Below are positions 1 through 10,031 of a stretch of 10,031 nucleotides of DNA, in pieces. Numbering within the stretch: position 1 is the stretch's first letter; each line of letters opens with the position of its first letter. A program made the translations under genes and the position numbers. The notes beneath the pieces were generated by a model. The model saw only the letters and a program-made list of their open reading frames with translations. It made no database searches and was not told where the DNA came from. The stretch covers positions 1-10,031 of IMG/VR virus record IMGVR_UViG_2645727991_000007, one strand, 5' to 3'. Origin of the DNA: a virus. Taxonomy: Duplodnaviria > Heunggongvirae > Uroviricota > Caudoviricetes.

Positions 1-934
1 AATAAACGCCCTCACTCTCCCTGTTTTTATACCCGCCGTACACGGTGTCGTACTGGGTAGCGTATGTATTTTTCCAGTAATACGTCGTGTCACCACAAAT
101 CCACGGCACATCTGCAGCACTGCCACCATGACACTGCGCGTTAAACACAGTGAGGTCAGCACGAAACTGCTTCAGCATGGCTGTAAACAGCGCAGGTTGC
201 TGTGCGTAGGTGGCGGCGCTCATGTCAAACTCTCCCTGCATCCAGCACACCGCCAGCAACACATTTTTCGGGTTCTTCTGTAATGCAGCTTTAGTGCGCG
301 CAATCAGGTCCTGATATAACGGTTTACCCACACCCCAGCGTGCCGAATCCTGGCTGGCCCCCGCGTCCGCACTGAATGTCCCCTCCGCGCCCTGGGTGAA
401 TGCCGAACCACCACGACAGCATGGTACCAGCAGGATCCCCGCGTTATTCGGGATATACGGAAGCAGTTTTTTGGCAATATGTAAGCCCTGGCCGACACAG
501 CCGTACTGCCCTTTGCTCAGGTCTGCCTTCGGATGATTCAGCGTACTCATATCCTGCACATCATGCAGGCAGTGGTCGGCCGGAATAATATCGTTATATC
601 TGCAGGCAGCCCCACCCGGCGTCACTGTACTGCGGCGCGCCAGCTGTTTAATGCGCGGATCCGGAGCATCGTATGAATCCGGCAGCGGAAGCCCTTCACC
701 GTAAGCCATGGCATTGGATTGCCCGGCCAGTACGATGACGTAGTACCAATCCGGCTCAGTTGCACCACTGACCACCACATCACCTTCTGCTGTAATCGCC
801 TGCATCAGAGTATAAGGGGTTATGGCCACCGGACTACCAAACGGCTGCCAGCCCTCTTTCAGTTTGTGTGTCAGCTTTTCCGCAAGGTCTGACGGCGACG
901 CCGCCCTGACAACATCATAATGTTTAAATGTCAT
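1..934 (-). CDS. 5' portion (about 311 codons) of a prophage NanS-p-like sialate O-acetylesterase (SASA/SGNH esterase); 3' end lies beyond the window start
   Basis: Minus-strand frame is open from ATG 934..932 (SD GGAGGA, rev-comp of tcctcc at 939-944) to the window edge; absent from the ORF track because the stop is outside the window. Translation starts MTFKHYDVVRAASPSDLAEKL and contains VLAGQSNAMAYGEG, the GQSN serine block typical of sialate O-acetylesterases. Location after the phage tRNAs matches nanS-p placement in Stx-type prophages. Family call is from memory. Confidence 0.55.
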   Translation of the reverse strand, partial: MTFKHYDVVRAASPSDLAEKLTHKLKEGWQPFGSPVAITPYTLMQAITAEGDVVVSGATEPDWYYVIVLAGQSNAMAYGEGLPLPDSYDAPDPRIKQLARRSTVTPGGAACRYNDIIPADHCLHDVQDMSTLNHPKADLSKGQYGCVGQGLHIAKKLLPYIPNNAGILLVPCCRGGSAFTQGAEGTFSADAGASQDSARWGVGKPLYQDLIARTKAALQKNPKNVLLAVCWMQGEFDMSAATYAQQPALFTAMLKQFRADLTVFNAQCHGGSAADVPWICGDTTYYWKNTYATQYDTVYGGYKNRESEGVY

Positions 935-1118
935 TATTCCTCCCGGCCGGGATAGTGTATTAAATCAGATATGGAGTGGGCTGTAGTCCGGAAGCCTGAA
1001 TGACACACGGGGACTACAGCCCAAGAAATGAAAAAAGGCCACGCAGTTGCGCAGCCTGATAAACCCTGGTTAAAATCCACACGATAACAACACAACAATA
1101 TCAGTATCTCATGCTATT

Positions 1119-1143
1119 GCCCGAACCCATTCGGGCATTTTTT
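1119..1143 (+). terminator. Intrinsic-terminator-like hairpin, plus-strand orientation
   Basis: gcccgaa(1119-1125) / loop ccca / ttcgggc(1130-1136), perfect 7-bp stem, followed by a-tttttt (1138-1143). Confidence 0.35.
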
Positions 1144-1148
1144 ACCCA

Positions 1149-1176
1149 TAAAAAATGCCCCTCCGGAGAGGGGCAT
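1149..1176 (-). terminator. Rho-independent terminator ending the TerB-like/small-ORF unit
   Basis: Perfect 9-bp stem atgcccctc(1155-1163) / loop cgga / gaggggcat(1168-1176); on the minus strand it is followed by TTTTTTAT (plus A-run 1150-1155). Confidence 0.5.
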
Positions 1177-1355
1177 GTTTGCATACACATTCTTTTTCTT
1201 GCATGGTGCCGGGTGCCTCCCGGTGAATTCAGCCGGTGTCACTGAACCCGCGTCGGCTTGCCTATAACATAATAAATGCTACCTACACCAGTCGCCCCTC
1301 CGCACAGGGGGATTCACCATGCAGAAGTGTTTTTAATAAACAGCAAATAAAAAAA

Positions 1356-1523
1356 TCAAGCATTATGCAGGCTGTTTCTTTTTATCACCGGCCACAGCAA
1401 TACCACAATGCCGCAGACCAGCACCCCATCCGCCAGCACCGACATGATTCTGCTGGTGAAATCCACCATCACCACCAGAAACAGCAGGAGTGCAGCCACA
1501 GCCAGGCGCAGTTTTACCGTCAC
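1356..1523 (-). CDS. Small hydrophobic protein (55 aa, two predicted TM segments), GTG start overlapping the TerB-like stop
   Basis: Below the ORF-track length cutoff. Minus-strand GTG 1523..1521 overlaps the upstream TGA (GTGA); possible SD GGAG 9 nt upstream. Translation VTVKLRLAVAALLLFLVVMVDFTSRIMSVLADGVLVCGIVVLLWPVIKRNSLHNA, stop TGA 1358..1356. No homolog recalled. Confidence 0.3.
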   Translation of the reverse strand: MTVKLRLAVAALLLFLVVMVDFTSRIMSVLADGVLVCGIVVLLWPVIKRNSLHNA

Positions 1524-1949
1524 AGGTAATTCTCCAGACGAAGACCCAGAACACCGGCAATCTCTTCCAGCACCTTGCGCTCTTCCGGCTCAATTTCGCC
1601 GTCTGCCTCCGCAATGGCCACCGCCACATCCAGCACATCTTCCGCTTCACGCGTATCGTGTTTCACATCCTCAATCTCGCGTAACGCGGCACGACGACCA
1701 ATTTTAAAATTGGTATCCAGCTGACCGATAATGGTTGCGCTAATCGCATTAATTTCCGAGGTAAACGCAGACAACGCAGGCTGATTACGTAAGACCTGTT
1801 CGATCTTCGCTTTCTCGGATGCCTCGCATTCACCATCTGCATAGGCCACCAGGTATGCAGCGTTAATCACCGCCTGTGCCAGATCGCGTTTCTCAAACTT
1901 TTTAATTTCCGCTGCCGCTCTGCGGGTTTTCTTTTTGAAGATTCCAAAC
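1520..1949 (-). CDS. TerB-like (tellurite-resistance TerB domain family) protein, 142 aa
   Basis: ORF-track frame 1520..2023, trimmed to ATG 1949..1947 which has SD AAGGAA 7 nt upstream (the track start at 2023 is GTG with no SD). Translation MFGIFKKKTRRAAAEIKKFEKRDLAQAVINAAYLVAYADGECEASEKAKIEQVLRN... EADGEIEPEERKVLEEIAGVLGL, with the paired ADGE helix repeats typical of TerB. Family call from memory. Confidence 0.6.
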
Positions 1950-2083
1950 ATCGTGACGTTCCTTTGGGTGGGTGAGCCAACGCCCGGGAGCGATCTGCCC
2001 ACAGAGAAAGTCACACTGACCACTCCGTAAGCTCACCCCCGAAAGGCTCTGTGGTTGATATGCGCCGGGCGTGGCGCAGATAC

Positions 2084-2107
2084 AAAAAAGGCCCGCCGAA
2101 GCGAGCC
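2084..2107 (-). terminator. Rho-independent terminator downstream of the tRNA pair
   Basis: On the minus strand GGCUCGC-UUCG-GCGGGCC (7-bp stem with one G-U, UUCG tetraloop; plus 2090-2107) followed by UUUUUU (plus A-run 2084-2089). Confidence 0.5.
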
Positions 2108-2120
2108 TGGAAAATAAGTG

Positions 2121-2197
2121 TGGCGCGTTGTAGTGGAGTCTAACCACTGACCGATTGCTTAGAAGGCAATTGCTCTGTCCGACTGAGCTAACAACGC
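2121..2197 (-). tRNA. tRNA-Arg (anticodon UCU), 77 nt with encoded CCA; prophage argN/argO-type
   Basis: Rev-comp folds by hand as a cloverleaf: acceptor GCGTTGT/ACAACGC, D-arm GCTC-AGTCGGACA-GAGC, anticodon arm ATTGC-CTTCTAA-GCAAT (TCT anticodon), variable CGGTC, T-arm AGTGG-TTAGACT-CCACT, discriminator G, CCA. The T-loop has A where the conserved C56 is expected. Confidence 0.65.
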
Positions 2198-2278
2198 ATG
2201 ATGCTGATAATGGACCGCCACCGGGGACTCCGAATCTCGCACAGGGTGACGTTCTTTCCTGATGAGCTAGTGGCGGTT

Positions 2279-2354
2279 GGTGGCCCTTGCTGGATTTGAA
2301 CCAGCGACCTGGCGATTATGAGTCACTCGCTCTCACCACTGAGCTAAAGGGCCG
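2279..2354 (-). tRNA. tRNA-Ile2 (anticodon CAU; ileX/ileZ-like, likely scored as tRNA-Met by generic tools), 76 nt with encoded CCA
   Basis: Rev-comp GGCCCTTTAGCTCAGTGGTGAGAGCGAGTGACTCATAATCGCCAGGTCGCTGGTTCAAATCCAGCAAGGGCCACCA; cloverleaf with anticodon loop CTCATAA. Differs at only a few positions from E. coli ileX as I recall it; Stx-type prophages carry ileZ-argN-argO at this position. Confidence 0.75.
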
Positions 2355-2362
2355 ATAACATA

Positions 2363-2391
2363 ATGATAACGTTACAGAATAAATTCAGCAA
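2363..2391 (-). promoter_or_regulatory. Sigma70-like promoter positioned to start the tRNA transcript
   Basis: On the minus strand TTGCTG (plus 2391-2386), 17-bp spacer, TATCAT (plus 2368-2363); the -10 ends 8 nt before the tRNA 5' end at 2354. Lies in the last codons of the methylase ORF. Confidence 0.4.
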
Positions 2392-2393
2392 TA

Positions 2394-3092
2394 TCACTCT
2401 CTCTTTCTGATTAAATTCTGTACATCCCTTGCGGTCTGCTCAAAACGTCCGGTCTCCAGCTCAACGCCAATTGCACGACGCCCCAGTGCATTCGCTGCTT
2501 TGACTGTCGAACCGGACCCCATGAAGAAATCTGCAACCAGGTCTCCCGGACGACTGCTGGCGGTAATCATTTGCCGCAACATATCTGCCGGTTTTTCACA
2601 GGGATGTTTGCCCGGATAATACTGCACAGGCTTGTGCGTCCAGACATCCGTATAAGGAACGGCTGCCGATACGGAAAAATAACGCCGCAGTGATTTGTAC
2701 TCTTCCAGCAGGCTGGCATACTGCCGGTTCAGCTCACTGTATGTGCTGACCAGTTGGTGATGTGGCTTTTCCAGTTCACCCCGCTGATGTTTCTCTTCTG
2801 CCACCCGGGCAAACAGCACCTGAAGTTTTCTGTAATCATCCTCGTTCGGTAACTGCCACTGGCTGGCACTGAACCAGTGCGACACCATGTTTTTCTTTCC
2901 TGTGGCATCCACAATCTGTTTTGCCGTTATCCCCAGAGCAGCACGCGCATCACGAAAGTAAGAAATCAGCGGGGCCATCACATGCTGTTTCAGTGCACTG
3001 CCCTTCGCCGCATAACCACAAATAAAAAAGCCTTTACTGCGGAAGGCGTCTGTAACAACCGAACTGATAGTCTGCCAGACCCGCCATAACAA
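2394..3092 (-). CDS. DNA methyltransferase (N6/N4 amino-MTase family), C-terminal and target-recognition portion only; probably 5'-truncated or inactive
   Basis: ORF-track frame. C-terminal block HPCEKPADMLRQMITASSRPGDLVADFFMGSGSTVKAANALGRRAIGVELE matches the HP(T/C)xKP ... D(P)FxGSG(T/S)T ... GxE signature of this family. No DPPY/NPPY/SPPF motif IV anywhere in the ORF or in other frames upstream to 3354. The track start at 3092 is TTG; first in-frame ATG is 2978. Confidence 0.6.
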   Translation of the reverse strand: MLWRVWQTISSVVTDAFRSKGFFICGYAAKGSALKQHVMAPLISYFRDARAALGITAKQIVDATGKKNMVSHWFSASQWQLPNEDDYRKLQVLFARVAEEKHQRGELEKPHHQLVSTYSELNRQYASLLEEYKSLRRYFSVSAAVPYTDVWTHKPVQYYPGKHPCEKPADMLRQMITASSRPGDLVADFFMGSGSTVKAANALGRRAIGVELETGRFEQTARDVQNLIRKRE

Positions 3093-3231
3093 GCTGGGTC
3101 AGTATTAACTGGCAGCGTTCGCGTGAAAGATAAGTGTTCTGCGCAATTTCCTCGACGGTCGCCGGTTCGGTGACGCTTAATTCATTAAACACCACTCTGG
3201 CGGTTTCGGTCATATCCTGCTGTTTTAGCAT
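3034..3231 (-). CDS. Small helix-turn-helix protein (about 65 aa), PapI/FaeA-like winged-helix candidate
   Basis: ATG 3231..3229 within track frame 3034..3354. Translation MLKQQDMTETARVVFNELSVTEPATVEEIAQNTYLSRERCQLILTQLVMAGLADYQFGCYRRLPQ, with the TVEEIAQ...LSRERCQLILTQLV segment HTH-like. Start uncertain: ATG 3213 and the GTG at 3354 are alternatives; the SD is weak. Confidence 0.35.
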   Translation of the reverse strand: MLKQQDMTETARVVFNELSVTEPATVEEIAQNTYLSRERCQLILTQLVMAGLADYQFGCYRRLPQ

Positions 3232-3354
3232 GCCTTTTTCCCTTTTCCGGTTAACGTGACACACCAATAACTCTTGTCGAAAAAGCCAGCAAGCTGAAAG
3301 AACGGTATTAATAACCACCAGCGAATTTATTGCGCTGCTGTATATTACGGACAC

Positions 3355-3375
3355 AAAAAAACCACCTTCCGGTGG
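3355..3375 (-). terminator. tR'-like intrinsic terminator ending the short late leader
   Basis: Minus strand CCACC-GGAA-GGUGG (plus 3362-3375, 5-bp GC-rich stem, GNRA loop) followed by UUUUUUU (plus 3355-3360). Confidence 0.5.
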
Positions 3376-3472
3376 CTTCCTTGTGCGAAAAAACTTGCAT
3401 TTCGCCTCGCGATACAGCTTTGCGGAGCTTACAGGAATTCAAGCTGTTTCTGCGTAAAAAAGCAAGCTTTTT
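3376..3472 (-). promoter_or_regulatory. Putative Q-dependent late promoter (PR'-like) and leader immediately downstream of Q
   Basis: Minus strand after the Q stop: AAAAAGCTTGCTTTTTTACGCAGAAACAGCTTGAATTCCTGTAAGC... Candidate -35 TTGCTT, 17-bp spacer, -10-like TTGAAT; an AT palindrome AAAAAAGC-TT-GCTTTTTT; a leader hairpin GCGAAA-N9-TTTCGC; then the terminator. Element positions are tentative. Confidence 0.35.
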
Positions 3473-4015
3473 TTATCGAAATGAATCGTGCATAGGTACA
3501 TAAAGCATGTGTTCAGCCACGGCTAACCAACCTGCAATACGTTTCTCACATGTGCTGAAACACCATTCCGGGTGAGTACGATTTAAACATTCTGCCATTT
3601 TTCTCTTACTCATTCCCCGTCCTTCGTACCTTTGCCGGAGAATATTGATTAGCCCGGGATATTCCCCAAGCACCTCACTGATAACGCGATCAATAATCAA
3701 CGCCTCTGTGTCTGTACAATGTGACAACCAGCTCTTCTGCTTCCCTCTGGTCATATCCCGAAAAAATGCCTCAAGTTCCGGTTTTTCCAGCCCGGATTTC
3801 TTCATGCTGCGTAAAACCTCATTAACTGCTGTTTTCGTCAGCCTTTTCGAAACCAGTAACCGGTTAAACATATTTCCGGATTTACCCCCACCGATATACG
3901 ACCACCGCCCCCACATCCGTAATTTCCCCTGGATCCAGACTGCTTCCAGCGTGTTCAGGCGTAAATGTTCGCCGCTTTTGCCTGTAATTTCCGGATATAT
4001 CATATTTACGCTCAC
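3473..4015 (-). CDS. Antitermination protein Q (Q21/Q82-type, Phage_antitermQ-like)
   Basis: ORF-track frame; GTG start 4015 overlaps the rusA stop (GTGA), alternative ATG at 4003. Contains LRMWGRWSY (compare the ERWGAWA motif of Q82-type proteins, from memory) and C-terminal cysteines EWCFSTC. Sits between rusA and the late promoter/terminator, the canonical Q position. Confidence 0.55.
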   Translation of the reverse strand: MSVNMIYPEITGKSGEHLRLNTLEAVWIQGKLRMWGRWSYIGGGKSGNMFNRLLVSKRLTKTAVNEVLRSMKKSGLEKPELEAFFRDMTRGKQKSWLSHCTDTEALIIDRVISEVLGEYPGLINILRQRYEGRGMSKRKMAECLNRTHPEWCFSTCEKRIAGWLAVAEHMLYVPMHDSFR

Positions 4016-4371
4016 TCACTCTCAATTTTGTAAATCTTCACACCCAGCCGTCCACCAGATACTGGCTGACCACGTACAATATTGATTTCATCAAACTGCT
4101 CGTCATCAATGAGCACTCCCGCATGCGTCAGCGCATCCAGCGGTGCTTTCAGAATATTGTCCAGGTCACGACGACGCTTATCCGGTGGCTCTGCAATAAT
4201 TTTTATTGCCAGCCGTCCGGACAGGCTTAATTTCAGTCGCTGCTGGCGAACAATAAGCGCCACTGCCCGGCGATAACGCTCCCCGGCTTTTGATACAAAA
4301 TATGTGCTGCCACGGCGTCGCCAGTAAGTGTTCACCGTCGGCGGGTAAGGTAAAACCAAATCTATGAGCAT
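4012..4371 (-). CDS. rusA: Crossover junction endodeoxyribonuclease RusA (Holliday junction resolvase)
   Basis: 119-aa ORF, ATG 4371 with SD AGAGGTGA. Translation MLIDLVLPYPPTVNTYWRRRGSTYFVS...PDKRRRDLDNILKAPLDALTHAGVLIDDEQF closely parallels E. coli RusA (PDRRRRDLDN...DALTKAG), from memory. Confidence 0.85.
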   Translation of the reverse strand: MLIDLVLPYPPTVNTYWRRRGSTYFVSKAGERYRRAVALIVRQQRLKLSLSGRLAIKIIAEPPDKRRRDLDNILKAPLDALTHAGVLIDDEQFDEINIVRGQPVSGGRLGVKIYKIESE

Positions 4372-4383
4372 CAGTCACCTCTT

Positions 4384-5433
4384 TTACCCGAGCACGCCGG
4401 TTGCAAAGGCGTGATCAAGAAAACGAAAAATTAACTCAATCTGAGAGCCGTACTTTTTCTCAAACTCCAGCGGGTCTGCATGAAGTTCGTTGTGGTGCTC
4501 CCGGCACAACGGTAACGTGAAAATATCGTGGGCCTTTGTCCCCATTCCCCCCTGACCATGACCAATCAGGTGATGCGGATCGTCAGCAGGCTTACCACAA
4601 CACGCACACGGCTGTGTCTTTACCCAGCGCGTGTATTTCTCGTTAACCCAGCGGCGACGTTTAGGTCGTTTCATGAAAGATTCCGGAGACTCAGGATCAA
4701 CGGCAATGCTGACCACCGTCTTTTCCTGTGGTGGGTTCTGTTGCTGGTGGGCGTGAGGCAGCGGCGCAAGATTTTTTGTGCGCTGCTTCAGTATGCTGGT
4801 GGCGGTCTGCTCTCCCGGTACGATGTCGCTTTCACGGTACACTGAGCGGATTTTTTCCGCACGCAACCCCAGCGAACGACGTAATACCGCTTCCGGTAGC
4901 GCGTCCGCCACCTGATTGCGGACCGCCCACCAGGATAATTCAGCCAGAGATAATTCACGCTCCTGCGTACCGCATATTGCGTGACCGATGACGTCAATCA
5001 TCCATGCTGACAGGTTTTGATGAGCAAGTTGCTCGAGTGATTCGGATGTCTGGTCACGCAGCTGGTTGTCGCAGTGCCAGCACAACACCATTGCGCCGGT
5101 ACCATAACGGTGAATAACGGTTTCACTGTGATGATAATCGCCGTGTGGCCACTGGCAGGATTTAACATGGCGCAGTAACCAGTCAGACAATGCGCCAGCG
5201 CCACCAGCAGCACGAATCACCCGTGCGTTACTGAAAAACGGCAGCAATGTTTTGTCTTCCACTAGCGGCTGGCGAACGGCAGGGACGATGCCGGACGGCA
5301 GATTACGCATGCTTTTCGGTTCCGGCTCCACCAGTACCCGGGTATTGTGGAATACCGGCATGGATTCACGGCCCGGCTTAACGATCACCAGCCCGAGTTC
5401 CGGTACCAGAACAGGTCGAAGTAATACCCGCAC
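4384..5433 (-). CDS. DUF968-domain prophage protein (YdfU-like), 349 aa
   Basis: ORF-track frame; GTG start 5433 with SD GGAGG 4 nt upstream. MRVLLRPVLVPELG... N-terminus and C-terminal CACCGKPADDPHHLIGHGQGG...LPLCREHHNELH (HNH/zinc-like) match my recollection of Qin-prophage YdfU. Contains two plus-strand Chi octamers (4743-4750, 4795-4802). Confidence 0.75.
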   Translation of the reverse strand: MRVLLRPVLVPELGLVIVKPGRESMPVFHNTRVLVEPEPKSMRNLPSGIVPAVRQPLVEDKTLLPFFSNARVIRAAGGAGALSDWLLRHVKSCQWPHGDYHHSETVIHRYGTGAMVLCWHCDNQLRDQTSESLEQLAHQNLSAWMIDVIGHAICGTQERELSLAELSWWAVRNQVADALPEAVLRRSLGLRAEKIRSVYRESDIVPGEQTATSILKQRTKNLAPLPHAHQQQNPPQEKTVVSIAVDPESPESFMKRPKRRRWVNEKYTRWVKTQPCACCGKPADDPHHLIGHGQGGMGTKAHDIFTLPLCREHHNELHADPLEFEKKYGSQIELIFRFLDHAFATGVLG

Positions 5434-5434
5434 G

Positions 5435-5707
5435 TTACCTCCAGATGCGTTGCTGGAATGTGCGGGACGGACGCGGCGGGCGTTCGGAATAAAGGAGCCT
5501 GACGTAGATTATCCAGTGACGGTAGTCGAGGCTAAGGGCTTTCTTAAACTCATACCCACGTCTGCGGTAGTTATGAATCAGCCATTCGGCCTGTTCTTCA
5601 GTGCAGGGATCGTGCTGATACCAGTCATATTTGAATGTGTGAGAACACCGCCCTTGCCTGCTGGCAGGGGCGATATCAGAATTGTGATGTTTGGTATTGT
5701 GCGCCAT
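5435..5707 (-). CDS. Hypothetical protein (about 90 aa)
   Basis: Track frame 5435..5761 begins at a TTG; first ATG is 5707 (MAHNTKHHNSDIAPASRQGRCSHTFKYDWYQHDPCTEEQAEWLIHNYRRRGYEFKK...). TAA stop 5437..5435 sits 1 nt before the DUF968 GTG. No family recognised. Confidence 0.4.
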   Translation of the reverse strand: MAHNTKHHNSDIAPASRQGRCSHTFKYDWYQHDPCTEEQAEWLIHNYRRRGYEFKKALSLDYRHWIIYVRLLYSERPPRPSRTFQQRIWR

Positions 5708-5776
5708 CGGTTTTCTCTGCTGGCGCAGCAGGTGCCAGTTGTTCAAGCTGGCGTGCGGCAATATTGTCTCTGATTT

Positions 5777-5807
5777 CTGTTGTCGTCAACAGGCAACGTG
5801 CTATCAT
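5777..5807 (+). promoter_or_regulatory. Toxin-antitoxin promoter with palindromic operator
   Basis: -35 TTGTCG (5780-5785), 16-bp spacer, -10 TATCAT (5802-5807); perfect palindrome CTGTTG-tcgt-CAACAG (5777-5792) overlaps the -35; SD GTGAGG at 5831-5836. Confidence 0.45.
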
Positions 5808-5842
5808 CGAATGGTGTTCTATCCTACTCCGTGAGGTTTACC

Positions 5843-6100
5843 ATGCGTACAACCCAACAATTCAGCATTACATTAACTAACGAAATGGCTGACATGGTGC
5901 GCGCCCGTGTGGCTTCCGGTGCCTATGCTTCAGAAAGCGAGGTCATTCGTGAAGGGCTTCGCGCACTGAATGAGCGCGATAAAGCAATCGAAGCGTGGTT
6001 AACGCATTCAGCCGCCCCCTCTCTTGATTCTATCCGCGAAAACCCAAACAACGGACGCTCCATTTCACAGGTTCGCGCCGCGATTCGATCCGGGAAGTAA
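5843..6100 (+). CDS. Type II antitoxin, ParD-like (ribbon-helix-helix/CopG family)
   Basis: ATG 5843 within track frame 5780..6100. Translation MRTTQQFSITLTNEMADMVRARVASGAYASESEVIREGLRALNERDKAIEAWL... ; stop is 5 nt before the toxin start. Confidence 0.75.
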   Translation: MRTTQQFSITLTNEMADMVRARVASGAYASESEVIREGLRALNERDKAIEAWLTHSAAPSLDSIRENPNNGRSISQVRAAIRSGK

Positions 6101-6105
6101 TCTGC

Positions 6106-6405
6106 ATGACATATGAAGTCATCATTACTCCTGAGGCCGAAGAACAAATAATCAACCTGCACAGATATATAACGGAGAAAGCAGGGAACGTCATTGCTGA
6201 CAATTTTGCCAATGCGCTTCTTGATTATCTTGATGGGTTTTCTACATTCCCGCATCGGGGCAATAAACGCGATGATATTCGCCAGGGGATGCGGGTAACT
6301 CATTTCCGCCACAGAACGATTATTGCTTTTGCCGTTGATGGCAGAAAAGTCTTTATTGTCGGTATCTATCATGGTGGGCAAAGTTATGAAACCGATTTCT
6401 TATAA
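6106..6405 (+). CDS. Type II toxin, ParE/RelE superfamily
   Basis: 99-aa ORF MTYEVIITPEAEEQIINLHRYITEKAGNVIADNFANALLDYLDGFSTFPHRGNKRDDIRQGMRVTHFRHRTIIAFAVDGRKVFIVGIYHGGQSYETDFL; size, operon position after the RHH antitoxin and the C-terminal FxV...IxHG pattern fit ParE. Confidence 0.8.
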   Translation: MTYEVIITPEAEEQIINLHRYITEKAGNVIADNFANALLDYLDGFSTFPHRGNKRDDIRQGMRVTHFRHRTIIAFAVDGRKVFIVGIYHGGQSYETDFL

Positions 6406-6488
6406 ACTTTTACCCACATCATTCCGGTGTTAGAATTAACCGTCCGCCCCCCTCTCTTACTGGCGGATTCGTAGGCTATATAAATCAA

Positions 6489-6523
6489 AGATCCCGGCTC
6501 ATGTTTGTGTCGGGATCTTTTTT
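6489..6523. terminator. Bidirectional intrinsic terminator between the convergent TA operon and the minus-strand small-peptide ORF
   Basis: 8-bp stem agatcccg(6489-6496) / 14-nt loop / cgggatct(6511-6518), followed by TTTTTT (6518-6523) on plus and by CTTTGATTTATAT on minus. Confidence 0.5.
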
Positions 6524-6530
6524 CGGCGAT

Positions 6531-6614
6531 TTATCCCCAGCGGCAAATCGAATACACCACCAGCGCCACCGCCATCGCAATTCCTACCGTTGTGAATGCT
6601 TCAGGCCTGGTCAT
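6531..6614 (-). CDS. 27-aa single-TM peptide, translationally coupled to the upstream ORF
   Basis: Below the track cutoff. ATG 6614..6612 overlaps the TGA of the 114-aa ORF (ATGA). Translation [30 protein letters not shown] stop 6533..6531, terminator directly downstream. Confidence 0.25.
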
Positions 6615-6955
6615 CGTAAAACATCCTCCACGCTTGTCAGTCCGTTTCGCTCCAGGTAGTCCATCGCCTTATCCGGCAGTTTGCAGTCCGGCTTCGCTTT
6701 CCTCAGTTGCCAGGCTAACTGCTTTACCTGCATAGTTAACTCGTCGACCAGACGCTGATACCCCACTGGTTTGTATTCATGCAATTTACCGGCTGGCTCT
6801 GCTGCCAGCGATGCCAGTGCGATTTCCAGAACAGCAATATCCATCTTATATGTGCGGATGATGTCATGGTCGATTGTGCCCGGTATACACAGTCTCTGTG
6901 CTTCAATAGTCTCCTCTGCGTGAGCTATTAACTGCTCTCTGGTAATAGTGGTCAT
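6611..6955 (-). CDS. Hypothetical prophage protein (114 aa)
   Basis: ORF-track frame; ATG 6955..6953 overlaps the upstream TGA (ATGA). [31 protein letters not shown]... ; no family recognised. Confidence 0.55.
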
Positions 6956-7467
6956 GCCGCGTTTCCTTCTTTCTTATTAACAATTACACCGTCATATATT
7001 TCATTAAGGTGCCCTCTCAACTCCATGCGCCTTAATGCAGACAACATGTAATCGCATTCAACCTGCTTATTTCCAGTAAATGGCTTATCGTCAGGATTAC
7101 CCCAACAGCAATTACCCTTGGGCCACCCATGTACTTTCCGTACTCTTCCGTTAACAACGTGAAGTAATCCCCAGCCAGGTGGTAAATCCTCAATTGAAAT
7201 AATTCCCGGCTCACTAATAAAGAATCGCCAGTCGCCCATTCCAAGAGACGGATTTTTACGAAAACACTTTTTTCTATCTGCCAACAAGTCAGCACGAGAA
7301 CATTTCGCCTCTATCAGGCATGATGCTGAATTTCTGAATCCCATAGCATCTGGCTGTTCTCCGGTACTGGTTACAGCTATAAAGCGGTCATGAAAACAAA
7401 CCTTGAACCCGTTGCGCTTAAGGAACTTGTACGCAATCTGACAGAGTTCGCGGTGTGTTAACGCCAT
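6952..7467 (-). CDS. Hypothetical protein with PD-(D/E)xK-like nuclease motif (171 aa)
   Basis: Track frame 6952..7497 trimmed to ATG 7467..7465 (SD AAGGAG 7 nt upstream), 1 nt after the Ea22-like stop. [21 protein letters not shown] gives D ... E-x-K with spacing typical of the PD-(D/E)xK fold; the fold assignment is inference only. Confidence 0.55.
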
Positions 7468-7468
7468 A

Positions 7469-8416
7469 TCACTCTCCTTTGATGCGAATGCCAGCAAGCC
7501 AGTTTCTTATGCCGATATATTCAGCGTTCCTGAAACCGCTTTTTACATATATAAATGGCAAGCGAAGATTGTGACCATTGACTGCCAGGTAGTCTTTACA
7601 ACCCTGTTCGGTGAAACAGCAGGTAACGAATTCATCAATATCTTTCACAGCAACGCGCCGCCATTTTTCTGGTGGCTCTCGAAAGTTTTCATGAAGTAGC
7701 TCGAGACGACGACTATGGCGTTTATTGGCTTCATTGCCATCTTCGTCAACCCAGACAATCCGGTCATGGTCATAATCAGCATCAACAACGATTTCGCGCT
7801 TTTGATACACACAAAACATGGGATCTGACGTTATTCGATTGTCCTGTGTTCGAATATTTTCACCGATGATGCCAAACGAATCTGGTGCAGATTTTGTCTG
7901 CATCTCTTCGATACGTTCAGCCATCGCAGCACACTCTTCAAAGTTGCTTAATGCTTTTCGCTCCCATTCGGCGCATTGTTTTTCCAGTTCTGCTATGCGC
8001 TTACTTCCATCCGCGATTACTCCCTCGTAATATTCACGCTGCTCGTTGAGTTTTGATTTTGCTGCTTCAAGCTCAACGCGCAGCTTCCCTACCGTTAGCG
8101 CAATATCCTCGTTCTCCTGGTCGCGGCGTTTGATGTATTGCTGGTTTCTTTCCCGTTCATCCAGAAGCGCCAGCGCAACATTTGGATTAAAGGCAGCAAT
8201 AAATTCAGCGTTTGCGTAAGCCTGAGCATCTGTTTCAACCAGGCAGTTAACATGACATTCTGCAATCACGCCACCGGGTTCTCCTTTCCATTTTTGACAA
8301 ACAAAAACTCCTGTTATATTCCCATGCTGATTGCCCGATGTATGCCCTACGATGTAGCATCCTTTAGTTGCTTTCTCTGCTGCTTCACGCAGCGCCTGAT
8401 AGTCAATCTCGCTCAT
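7469..8416 (-). CDS. Ead/Ea22-like family protein (315 aa) with central coiled-coil
   Basis: ORF-track frame; ATG 8416..8414 overlaps the upstream TGA. N-terminus MSEIDYQALREAAEKATKG, the LLDERERNQQYIKRRDQENEDIALTVGKLRVELEAAKSKLNEQREYYEG coiled-coil and the C-terminal AGIRIKGE resemble lambda Ea22-type proteins as I recall them. Confidence 0.6.
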   Translation of the reverse strand: MSEIDYQALREAAEKATKGCYIVGHTSGNQHGNITGVFVCQKWKGEPGGVIAECHVNCLVETDAQAYANAEFIAAFNPNVALALLDERERNQQYIKRRDQENEDIALTVGKLRVELEAAKSKLNEQREYYEGVIADGSKRIAELEKQCAEWERKALSNFEECAAMAERIEEMQTKSAPDSFGIIGENIRTQDNRITSDPMFCVYQKREIVVDADYDHDRIVWVDEDGNEANKRHSRRLELLHENFREPPEKWRRVAVKDIDEFVTCCFTEQGCKDYLAVNGHNLRLPFIYVKSGFRNAEYIGIRNWLAGIRIKGE

Positions 8417-8589
8417 TCATCGCCCCACTCATCACAATATGCTTCGACCGCAGTTTTCCCTGCTTCATAATCATCACGCCATGCTTCAGCATCAGCAGCA
8501 CTGCCACCACGTAACTCTGCATAGTCCATTAACAGTTCATGCCATTCTTCAAAACTGACGCTGTATTTAGTTGAACCAAAATCAGCCAT
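8413..8589 (-). CDS. Small highly acidic protein (58 aa)
   Basis: Below the track cutoff. ATG 8589..8587 with strong SD AGGAGGA. Translation MADFGSTKYSVSFEEWHELLMDYAELRGGSAADAEAWRDDYEAGKTAVEAYCDEWGDE; 16 D/E versus 4 K/R. Confidence 0.4.
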   Translation of the reverse strand: MADFGSTKYSVSFEEWHELLMDYAELRGGSAADAEAWRDDYEAGKTAVEAYCDEWGDE

Positions 8590-8590
8590 T

Positions 8591-8764
8591 TTATTCCTCC
8601 TCTTCGTCTTTTATTTCGTGATATGAGTAATTGCAGTAGTTAAAGAAAATATCTTTTGCTTCGTCATGTATTTCATCAGGCGTCGCATCATCATCCACTT
8701 CGAATTCATCCTCGAAATCTCCACCGGCTATTCCCGTTTCAATAATTATTTTAAACTTTCGCAT
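8591..8764 (-). CDS. Small highly acidic protein (57 aa)
   Basis: Below the track cutoff. ATG 8764..8762 preceded in frame by TAA. Translation MRKFKIIIETGIAGGDFEDEFEVDDDATPDEIHDEAKDIFFNYCNYSYHEIKDEEEE; 20 D/E versus 5 K/R. TAA stop is 1 nt before the next ATG. Confidence 0.4.
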   Translation of the reverse strand: MRKFKIIIETGIAGGDFEDEFEVDDDATPDEIHDEAKDIFFNYCNYSYHEIKDEEEE

Positions 8765-8857
8765 TTAACTACCGCCCTTTCGGGCGGCCTCCTGATGTTC
8801 TTAGGGTGCAGAAATCCCTCCGGTTAAGGATTAAATTTTTAACAGAGCTAAATTTAA

Positions 8858-9214
8858 TTATTCAGTTCTGGATTTTGTCGCCCTGCGTATCCGCGCTTTC
8901 GCGTTACGCTCAATCTGAATTAGCTTTTCTATATTTTTTCGCCTTTCCCGCTCCTCCTGGCGCAAGAGCCTTACATCATCTGCCAGTCTGGTTTCTCTTT
9001 TCGCCACAGAGAGCATCCAGTCAAACGGCTCCACAACTGCACCGCAGATTTTACAGCGGACCTGACGCTCTTTTTCGTCAACCCGAACAGAGGCGTGATG
9101 ACAATATGCTCTTTCCGATGCCTCATAAAGAAAATTAACCTGATTACGTGGGTCATCCTCTTTTACCGGAAATAAAACGATATTGCTTAACTCATCTTCT
9201 GGTTTTATTTCCAT
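8858..9214 (-). CDS. Hypothetical protein (118 aa) with CHH...CxxC zinc-ribbon-like motif and basic C-terminal tail
   Basis: Track frame 8858..9271 trimmed to ATG 9214..9212 (SD AAGGAG 6 nt upstream). MEIKPEDELSNIVLFPVKEDDP...AYCHHASVRVDEKERQVRCKICGAVVEPFDW...RLLRQEERERRKNIEKLIQIERNAKARIRRATKSRTE. Confidence 0.5.
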   Translation of the reverse strand: MEIKPEDELSNIVLFPVKEDDPRNQVNFLYEASERAYCHHASVRVDEKERQVRCKICGAVVEPFDWMLSVAKRETRLADDVRLLRQEERERRKNIEKLIQIERNAKARIRRATKSRTE

Positions 9215-9271
9215 GCTCTTCTCCTTTGATGTGAATGCCAGCGGTAATTGAAGCCTGATAGCTAATTTCAT

Positions 9272-9667
9272 TCACAGTATCGCCTCCTGAAAATTACCCT
9301 GATAGAAAGCCAGTACACGCAGCATAACTTCACTCTTCCGGCACTCGCCACAGATTATGTTCTGTTGTCTGTCGTAGCGGCGTATTTCTCCGTCTGGTAA
9401 CTTTCGAATCAATGTCTGGTCGGTTGTTTTCTCCGCTGCCTTACGCCATACGCGATACACCTGTTCTGATGTAAAAACACCGTATTTACCGGGCATGTAT
9501 AAATCGCCACAAGCCAGTACATCCACAAGGCAACGTCTGACTGAATGCCAGCCTGCTCCCGTCGCTCTCTCCAGTTGTGATATCGTCATGCGTTCATTTT
9601 TGCGTACCAGCCCGATAATTCGGGCCTTCAGTTCTTCACGCTGTTCGTGTGTAAAAGGTTTCGCCAT
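9272..9667 (-). CDS. Hypothetical protein (131 aa), possible winged-helix DNA-binding protein
   Basis: Track frame 9272..9682 trimmed to ATG 9667..9665 (SD GGAGG). MAKPFTHEQREELKARIIGLVRKNERMTISQLERATGAGWHSVRRCLVDVLACGDLYMPGKYGVF... ; the TISQLERATGAGWHSVRRCL segment is HTH-like (inference). Confidence 0.5.
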   Translation of the reverse strand: MAKPFTHEQREELKARIIGLVRKNERMTISQLERATGAGWHSVRRCLVDVLACGDLYMPGKYGVFTSEQVYRVWRKAAEKTTDQTLIRKLPDGEIRRYDRQQNIICGECRKSEVMLRVLAFYQGNFQEAIL

Positions 9668-9682
9668 AAGCGCCTCCGGCAA

Positions 9683-10031
9683 TCACTTTTCCGATACAAC
9701 ACGGCGGGAAGAATCAGTAATCTGTCGAACAATATCCCGGTGCTTGTTCAGCTCCCGCAGCGCGGCGCAGACTCGCTCCCACTTCTGAACATCACTTTTC
9801 GCCCTGCGCAGCGCCAGGTTTGCCCTGCGAAGGGACGGAAAAATCAGCTCATCTGCTTGCGTTTCGGTAAACGATGGCAACGGCTGCACAATGTCCGCCA
9901 CAGTTTCTGTTTTAATTTCTTCCTGTGTTGCGGCTTCCCGGACTGGTAACGCAGCACCTGCTGGCTGAGGAAAGGCCTTACCATCATTTTCCGTTACCGG
10001 CGCGGCTTTCGGATCTGCTGGTAAATTACCC
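9683..10031 (-). CDS. 3' portion of a gene continuing upstream beyond the window end (function unknown, possibly replication-region protein)
   Basis: The track gives 9683..9901 from an internal GTG, but the same frame stays open to the window edge (...GNLPADPKAAPVTENDGKAFPQPAGAALPVREAATQEEIKTETVADIVQPLPSFTETQADELIFPSLRRANLALRRAKSDVQKWERVCAALRELNKHRDIVRQITDSSRRVVSEK). Stop at 9685..9683. Confidence 0.45.
   Translation of the reverse strand, partial: GNLPADPKAAPVTENDGKAFPQPAGAALPVREAATQEEIKTETVADIVQPLPSFTETQADELIFPSLRRANLALRRAKSDVQKWERVCAALRELNKHRDIVRQITDSSRRVVSEK

Follow-up and report, generated by a model that had tools for sequence, protein, structure and literature searches.

A 10,031-nucleotide (nt) stretch of DNA from a virus of the Caudoviricetes (positions 1 to 10,031 of the IMG/VR record IMGVR_UViG_2645727991_000007), referred to below as the window, carries two nearly identical copies of a 23-bp sequence (the 23-mer) at two separate gene junctions. 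The 23-mer consists of the last codons and the ribosome-binding site that are conserved in the ea22 gene family of phage lambda, and it marks the position where prophages begin or cease to resemble one another. The evidence favors a joint reading, to which a probability of about three in four is assigned: the 23-mer is an Ea22 3' terminus together with a ribosome-binding site, its second copy in the window ends a gutted Ea22 remnant, and the short patch of identity has served for the reassortment of gene cassettes. Judged by its sequence, this remnant, an open reading frame (ORF) of 27 codons, is what is left of an Ea22-type gene after the in-frame loss of everything between its two ends. Mosaicism of ea22 and boundary sequences in lambdoid phages are already known, and the present case is a clear instance of this known phage genome architecture.

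Two copies of the 23-mer in the window

The copies are located at 7473-7495 and 9220-9242, where the plus-strand letters are TCTCCTTTGATGCGAATGCCAGC and TCTCCTTTGATGTGAATGCCAGC, respectively, and they differ at a single base. All of the relevant genes are on the minus strand and belong to the rightward early operon of a Rac-like lambdoid prophage; in relatives, cro, cII, O and ydaT/U/V lie just upstream. Read on this strand, the 23-mer is GCTGGCATTC(G/A)CATCAAAGGAGA; it codes for AGI(R/H)IKGE, the tail of ead/Ea22-family proteins including that of lambda ea22, and it also holds the Shine-Dalgarno (SD) sequence of the next gene (AAGGAG). The identity of the two copies covers exactly 23 nt, with no relation between their flanks on either side.

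Copy 1 forms the final 7 2/3 codons of the ORF at 7469..8416 (minus strand). The codons GCT GGC ATT CGC ATC AAA GGA GA(G) TGA give AGIRIKGE and the stop, with AGIRIKG and the GA of the E codon lying within the repeat. This ORF is an intact ead/Ea22-like gene of 315 amino acids (aa) with the N-terminus MSEIDYQALRE and the C-terminus RNWLAGIRIKGE, and its residues 2-145 match the Pfam family PF13935 (Ead_Ea22) with E=3.3e-45 and 154.5 bits against a cutoff of 27. Within copy 1, the SD sequence AAAGGAGA at 7473-7480 serves the downstream 171-aa ORF (6952..7467, minus strand), the ATG of which at 7467 is 1 nt past the Ea22 TGA and is preceded by AAGGAG at a distance of 6 nt. Copy 2 is the His variant (CAC for CGC) and is found in a gap of 57 nt (9215-9271) between lygF and a 118-aa ORF. 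The former is a DUF977/LygF (Ren-like) gene (9272..9682, minus strand; E=3.6e-72) with its stop at 9272-9274, for which the RefSeq start would be ATG 9667; the latter (8858..9214, minus strand) starts with MEIKPEDELSNIVLFP and shows a weak zinc-ribbon match. Here AAAGGAGA at 9220-9227 is the SD sequence, and the spacing to the ATG of the 118-aa ORF at 9214 is the same as that at copy 1.

An earlier examination of the letters and ORFs of the window (the sequence-only reading) had proposed two copies differing by one base at these positions, and had taken the minus strand of copy 1 to be an Ea22-like C-terminus AGIRIKGE combined with the SD sequence of the next gene. Both copies were found where it had placed them, and the Pfam match of the 315-aa ORF and the AAGGAG 6 nt before ATG 7467 confirm the assignment of copy 1. 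Copy 2 had been described as an intergenic, out-of-frame string supplying the SD sequence and start context of the 118-aa ORF. This role stands, as does the lack of a common frame with the 118-aa ORF; however, copy 2 is not merely an orphan 3' end, since a GTG at 9275 opens the same frame, and copy 2 forms the 3' part and the close of the resulting 27-codon ORF.

The presence of AAGGAG, and nothing more, speaks for the very remote alternative that the repeat is a chance SD-containing sequence, a structured or site-specific recombination site of the attC type or a known RNA. Against chance, two matches occurred in none of 200 dinucleotide-preserving shuffles of the window (expected matches 0.00), and the sequence is conserved across hundreds of prophages. 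An attC/att-like site was rejected on the grounds that there is no inverted repeat at the sites, that folding is predicted to be weaker than in shuffles (z from +0.5 to +1.2) and that no recombinase gene is adjacent. A known RNA family was likewise rejected, as no Rfam match falls on the sites and the four matches in the window are all within 1082-2353. Furthermore, no promoter- or terminator-like site was found at either copy of the 23-mer.

The 27-codon Ea22 remnant

The remnant ORF (9192..9275, minus strand) encodes VNEISYQASITAGIHIKGEEHGNKTRR, followed by a stop, and has no RefSeq annotation. It has an Ea22-type start and an Ea22-type end with the interior absent: it reads VNEISYQA-SIT-AGIHIKGE and is family-like only in the first eight codons (MNEISYQA) and the last eight (AGIHIKGE). 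The retained 5' end, GTGAATGAAATTAGCTATCAGGC (9253..9275, minus strand), shares 16-19 of its 23 nt with Ea22 5' ends, and past TATCAGGC (CAGGC) the similarity to Ea22 genes falls to the level of chance (3-6 of 22). Between the two retained ends lies a 10-nt joint, TTCAATTACC (9243..9252, minus strand), which is seen only in remnant copies. A test of the 27-codon ORF for the Ead_Ea22 domain (PF13935) showed that the rest of the domain is absent, and the remnant is not a member of the family. Since the Ea22 5' end is kept as well as the 3' end, the locus appears to hold an Ea22-type gene from which the interior has been removed in frame, and the remnant presumably came from a full-length gene by deletion.

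The signals for expression are retained at both ends. The AGGAGG in the last codons of lygF, 7 nt before the GTG at 9275, serves this GTG, which in turn overlaps the lygF TGA (GTGA; context cTGTGAatg). The remnant stops 20 nt inside the 118-aa ORF, and full-length Ea22 genes overlap equally at this junction. The remnant ORF is probably translated and, with both expression signals intact, the operon would still read lygF, the remnant and then the 118-aa ORF.

In total, 79 copies of the remnant were collected in 31 haplotypes, and all of them share the joint TTCAAT[TA]nnC. One scan of JGI metagenomes for the joint gave 17 matches, all of them unrelated chance matches, and the joint was not seen outside remnants in IMG/VR or in these metagenomes. 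Given that the 10-nt joint is uniform among the copies and confined to them, a single origin of the remnant is the simplest reading of these sequences. The remnant is widespread: 884 of 5426 complete Escherichia coli genomes (~16%) cover at least 80% of a 121-nt query spanning lygF, the remnant and the 118-aa ORF.

The retention of these signals could also mean that translation of the 118-aa ORF after lygF is coupled or tuned by the 27-codon ORF, which would then be a functional upstream ORF or micropeptide. The 27-codon frame is intact in 68 of the 79 copies, the AGGAGG, the overlap of the GTG with the lygF stop and the 20-nt overlap with the 118-aa ORF are in line with this, the last of these being as in full-length Ea22 genes, and the region is predicted to be unstructured, as expected for a ribosome-loading site. 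However, the frame is broken in 11 of the 79 copies, comprising nine with a 1-nt deletion in the 5' part (a whole lineage), one with GTG changed to GTA and one with an insertion sequence (IS). In addition, the variation in the ORF is mostly nonsynonymous (S/N, E/K, S/N/D/G, A/V/S, T/A/I/V/S and R/H), and few indels would be expected in any case in the mere 57 nt that separate the flanking genes. A function of this kind is therefore considered unlikely.

Some individual copies of the remnant show further features. The window carries the variant GTGAATG (Asn for Ser), in which an ATG at 9269-9271 (minus strand) right after the lygF stop is in frame with the 118-aa ORF down to 8858 and allows a possible N-terminally extended form of 137 aa, MKLAIRLQLPLAFTSKEKS-MEIKP...; the common variant GTGAGTG has no such ATG. 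In the lineage with the 1-nt deletion, the GTG reads through into the downstream gene. Two copies each of the junction of lygF, remnant and 118-aa ORF are present in E. coli ECMA0423 (loci L315 and L337) and Shigella flexneri SFBU1023 (L320 and L334), presumably in two prophages. Locus L128 was considered as a parent of the remnant and was rejected, as it represents an IS insertion into the remnant; the IS lies at about 5960-6010 of that locus, between the Ea22 5' piece and ATCAGGCTTCAATT.

Gene junctions joined by the 23-mer across prophages

An exact scan of IMG/VR for the 23-mer returned at least 120 loci. Sequences 21-220 nt upstream and 21-220 nt downstream were clustered for the 121 sites with adequate flanks, and the exact 23-mer was found to join at least 15 upstream clusters with at least 17 downstream clusters, unrelated to one another, in at least 41 combinations. 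Breakpoints were analyzed using 181 distinct haplotypes of 323 nt, giving 16,290 pairs. In 10,994 of these pairs (67%) the shared sequence extends no more than 12 nt beyond the 23-mer on either side; a further 865 pairs share at least 80 nt upstream and break within 12 nt downstream, and the converse holds for 2,399 pairs. The breakpoint distances are bimodal, with intermediate distances being rare.

Sites were also picked by the downstream gene alone in order to avoid circularity, and the joining of differing modules holds for these sites as well. With sites chosen by the start of the 118-aa ORF, all 131 starts are preceded by the 23-mer (with at most four mismatches) in about 12 upstream contexts, about half of them via the remnant. 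The 171-aa ORF starts at 117 prophage sites, about 60% of which have the 23-mer before them, and the others follow different gene ends sharing only AAAGGAGAgtgatATG. A remnant right before the 171-aa ORF, which would be the product of recombination between the two copies in the window itself, was not present among these 117 starts. In seven loci the same lygF and remnant are followed by an unrelated 194-aa gene (MTTFTKEQLI...), and the break falls directly after the 23-mer.

Full-length Ea22 genes occur at the same junction, and the 118-aa ORF often has one before it. In phage ArgO145 a 335-codon Ea22-like gene runs directly into the 118-aa ORF via AGIRIKGEEHGNKTRG and a stop, and in vB_EcoS-689R5 a 187-aa protein with the ending AGIRIKGE likewise abuts the 118-aa ORF, here with a GTG start. 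In BLAST comparisons, the resemblance of the window to ArgO145-type phages sets in at 9242-9243, where the 23-mer has its first base, and its similarity to lygF-bearing phages ends at 9279-9254. In L005-type loci, a 99-aa gene stands between lygF and the Ea22 gene. The sequence-only reading had suggested that the 23-mer is a conserved gene-boundary linker, and that the 118-aa ORF or an ancestor of the locus once sat downstream of another Ea22-type gene. The former suggestion agrees with the 41 or more combinations and with the 67% of haplotype pairs that share little beyond the 23-mer, and the latter with ArgO145, vB_EcoS-689R5 and the 131 starts behind the 23-mer. The outcome that it had named as contradicting a linker, namely no match at gene boundaries in other phages and no break in flanking similarity at this point, was not observed.

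The octapeptide, a regularity of Ea22 proteins found in this analysis, is not among the features defined by Pfam. The 23-mer also forms the end of lambda ea22: the DNA of locus L036 is 100% identical to lambda J02459 29766-30016, and its protein of 182 aa reads ...HRYYGVGG...EYLHMMSDAGIRIKGE. Among the motif-bearing ORFs in the loci, 66 of 78 end in the AGIRIKGE tail, as does lambda Ea22. Among the 120 proteins most similar to the N-terminal domain, AGIRIKGE is the ending of 43, in some cases extended by the eight residues EHGNKTR[RG], and about 45 more end in close variants (ADIRIKGE, PGIRIKGE, TGIRIKGE and VNIGIKGE), giving a total of about three quarters; tails of this type sit behind at least six unrelated C-terminal contexts in the same 120 proteins. 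The 5' end of Ea22 genes is often preceded by AAAGGAGGCAACCAGTG. As a separate observation, AAAGGAGGCAACCAGTGAGC precedes many Ea22 starts (for example, L001 6805-6830).

Variation within the 23-mer provides a further indication. The His variant of the window is linked to a change from GGAGC to AGAGC downstream. Upstream of the linked His/AGAGC form there is either a remnant, of which two subtypes are represented, or, in L060, a full-length lambda-type Ea22, and the Arg form is also found with both upstream kinds. This four-gamete pattern is consistent with an exchange within the first 10 nt of the 23-mer, the alternative being that both changes recurred independently. Together with the distribution of breakpoints, it suggests that crossovers may occur inside the 23-mer.

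The following mechanism is proposed. The 23-mer, with the stop and start codons that abut it, would set the translation start context of whichever gene comes next. A non-homologous in-frame deletion may have removed the interior of an Ea22-type gene to give the remnant, sparing both the upstream coupling signal and the downstream ribosome-binding site; the remnant would have survived because both expression signals were kept, and then spread widely. The 23-mer, and likewise the conserved Ea22 5' end, would form a short patch of identity amid unrelated DNA at which phage (Red/RecET-type) or host recombination could cross over, so that Ea22 interiors and downstream genes would reassort as cassettes. 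By analogy with known systems, Red/RecET-type enzymes are the likely agents.

Several points weigh against this account. The loci come mostly from redundant E. coli isolates. No parent of the remnant, that is, a full-length gene with the 10-nt joint before the 23-mer, was recovered, as three pattern scans of IMG/VR gave only remnant variants or nothing, and lygF followed directly by a full-length Ea22 gene was not present in about 350 loci. A length of 23 bp is at the lower limit of efficient homologous recombination; minimal efficient pairing is about 23-27 bp for RecBCD, and the optimum for Red is 30 nt or more. There is no homology at the joint of the remnant itself, which looks like an illegitimate deletion rather than a linker-mediated exchange. 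Finally, locus L193 keeps AGIRIKGE through four synonymous changes, so that the peptide is conserved there without DNA identity, and part of the conservation may therefore be due to selection on the protein or the ribosome-binding site.

The last two points are also what would be expected from illegitimate recombination followed by selection (the Hendrix/Juhala view), in which joints form anywhere and the 23-mer is kept because the tail and the SD sequence are needed, and not because it is a crossover site. This view accommodates an internal joint with neither detectable homology nor a parent, as well as other end-retaining deletions nearby that have their joints elsewhere (a different Ea22 5' relic in L123 and a lygF 3' stub fused to the start of another gene in L016), and the final 8 nt of the 23-mer are indeed a ribosome-binding site. 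Against this view, identical codons are used for all eight residues in at least 15 unrelated upstream contexts, and the 5' break falls at one fixed codon within a coding region instead of at a gene boundary. The tail also tolerates many nonsynonymous changes (A to S/T, R to H/C, G to D/S and premature stops), and the four-gamete pattern lies within the 23-mer. Selection alone is accordingly a possible but distinctly less probable explanation; linker-mediated exchange is considered to be roughly twice as likely, and the two are not exclusive.

A more specific version of linker-mediated exchange is improbable. In this version, the Ea22 start and end would be the two arms of a cassette-exchange locus, and the 27-codon ORF would be a maintained 'empty slot' rather than debris, keeping translation running from lygF to the 118-aa ORF, with the two arms of ~23 nt docking Ea22 alleles of a co-resident prophage by double crossover. 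If this were true, roughly one sixth of E. coli genomes would have Ea22 as a presence/absence and allele-swapping locus.

The joint reading set out at the beginning can be compared with known systems. The ea22 genes of lambda and Stx phages have been described as mosaic and as present in several variants per genome; the N-terminal segment and the coiled coil are shared, and the C-terminal domains are unrelated (PMC10834534; PMC8614690). The HRYYGVGG loop has been described for lambda Ea22, and the C-terminal sequences have been stated to be dissimilar except for a 16-aa segment common to V1 and V2 (PMC10834534). These reports concern the same gene family; however, the shared terminal octapeptide, the 23-mer and the 27-codon remnant are not mentioned in them. 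A full-text search for AGIRIKGE, the coverage of which did not extend to Clark et al. (2001), found no literature description of the octapeptide or 23-mer or of the remnant. Short boundary sequences between lambdoid modules were put forward as substrates for exchange by Susskind and Botstein (1978) and, for HK620, by Clark et al. (2001), as cited in PMC3029335. As far as can be judged from that citation, the 23-mer resembles them in being a short identity at a gene boundary with unrelated flanks, in joining many gene pairs and in being a proposed substrate for homologous exchange, whereas it differs in not being intergenic, as it comprises the coding 3' end of one gene family and the ribosome-binding site of the next gene.

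The PeSL cassettes in the hyperplastic regions of T4-type phages consist of a promoter and a terminator stem-loop (PMC2839356). In both cases short repeated expression signals flank non-essential genes, and PeSL recombination yields insertions, deletions and replacements; however, the 23-mer has no sigma-70 promoter, terminator or stable fold and, within an operon, combines a coding tail with a ribosome-binding site. Recombinases of the Red/Rad52 type make mosaics at short or diverged homology, with Rac-like and other defective prophages as partners (PMC2327257; PMC3945230). The same enzymatic mechanism is proposed here, although those experiments used hundreds of base pairs of diverged homology and not a 23-bp island.

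The current understanding of phage mosaicism is unchanged by these results, the value of which lies mainly in prophage annotation and in providing a substrate for recombination experiments. They offer a countable example for the debate on whether lambdoid mosaics arise at conserved linkers or at random joints filtered by selection, in the form of one 23-bp island that can be traced through hundreds of prophages and dozens of gene combinations. The remnant is a single traceable case in which a whole gene appears to be removable with both expression signals kept, and an unannotated 27-codon ORF is flagged in about 16% of complete E. coli genomes. In addition, a shared terminal octapeptide is added to the description of Ea22 proteins.

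Taxonomic spread, related junctions and neighboring genes

An exact scan with one genome per species gave 39 matches, most of which reproduce the lambda ea22/ea8.5 junction verbatim. A wide taxonomic spread, which these matches would imply (Streptomyces, Streptococcus equinus, Shewanella, Prevotella, Bradyrhizobium and others; L310-L348, about 30 assemblies), was rejected: because the contigs with the verbatim lambda junction are either very short and of low coverage or about 48.4-48.5 kb long, these are almost certainly contamination with lambda control DNA. The matches with other junction types are from E. coli, Shigella flexneri, an Escherichia sp. and one scaffold of a Collinsella metagenome-assembled genome.

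Other relics and shared gene ends were seen in related loci. In L123 (2620-2790; phage vB_EcoS-666R9), an independent frameshifted relic of an Ea22 5' end of about 45 nt, GTGAGCCAAATTAACAATCAGGGAACTGCGTGA..., lies directly after lygF and is joined to a non-coding stretch that in the window is found downstream of the 118-aa ORF (8765-8860), including the GC-rich hairpin ccgccctttcgggcgg (8771-8790). L016, L062, L105 and L122 carry a stub of lygF, consisting of its final ~25 nt (aattttcaggaggcggtactgtga), some 110 nt upstream of the 23-mer. This stub continues in frame into the opening 14 codons of a different gene (MTTITKERIELFIK), and the Ea22 remnant lies behind it, giving a second start-plus-end relic stacked on the first. 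In L002 (5495-5530), lygF has a 3' end of the form (T)TTTCAGGAGGC...GTGA (FQEA...), and so does an unrelated gene of 99 aa. Such sequences point to linker-like strings common to several gene ends of the region.

The remaining minus-strand features of the window around the two junctions are a DUF1627 fragment at 9683-9901 and a DUF7167 ORF at 8591-8764, both identified by profile matches, and a 58-aa ORF at 8413-8589 and a 114-aa ORF at 6611-6955, both of which are ORF calls. On the opposite strand, a small two-gene pair (5780-6100 and 6106-6405, plus strand) breaks the minus-strand operon, and its counterpart in ArgO145 is annotated as an antitoxin and a toxin. Rfam matches at gathering score were obtained for the anti-GcvB small RNA AgvB (96.5 bits), STnc100 (153.6 bits) and two tRNA genes, at 1082-1143 (plus), 1144-1348 (minus), 2124-2197 (minus) and 2281-2353 (minus); a cluster of AgvB, STnc100 and tRNA genes is typical of the late-region side in Stx-type prophages. 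A direct repeat of 27 nt with 85% identity is formed by CATCTGCAGCACTGCCACCATGACACT (109-135) and CATCAGCAGCACTGCCACCACGTAACT (8490-8516), the second copy of which is within the 58-aa ORF; it may be due to chance or may represent another shared fragment.

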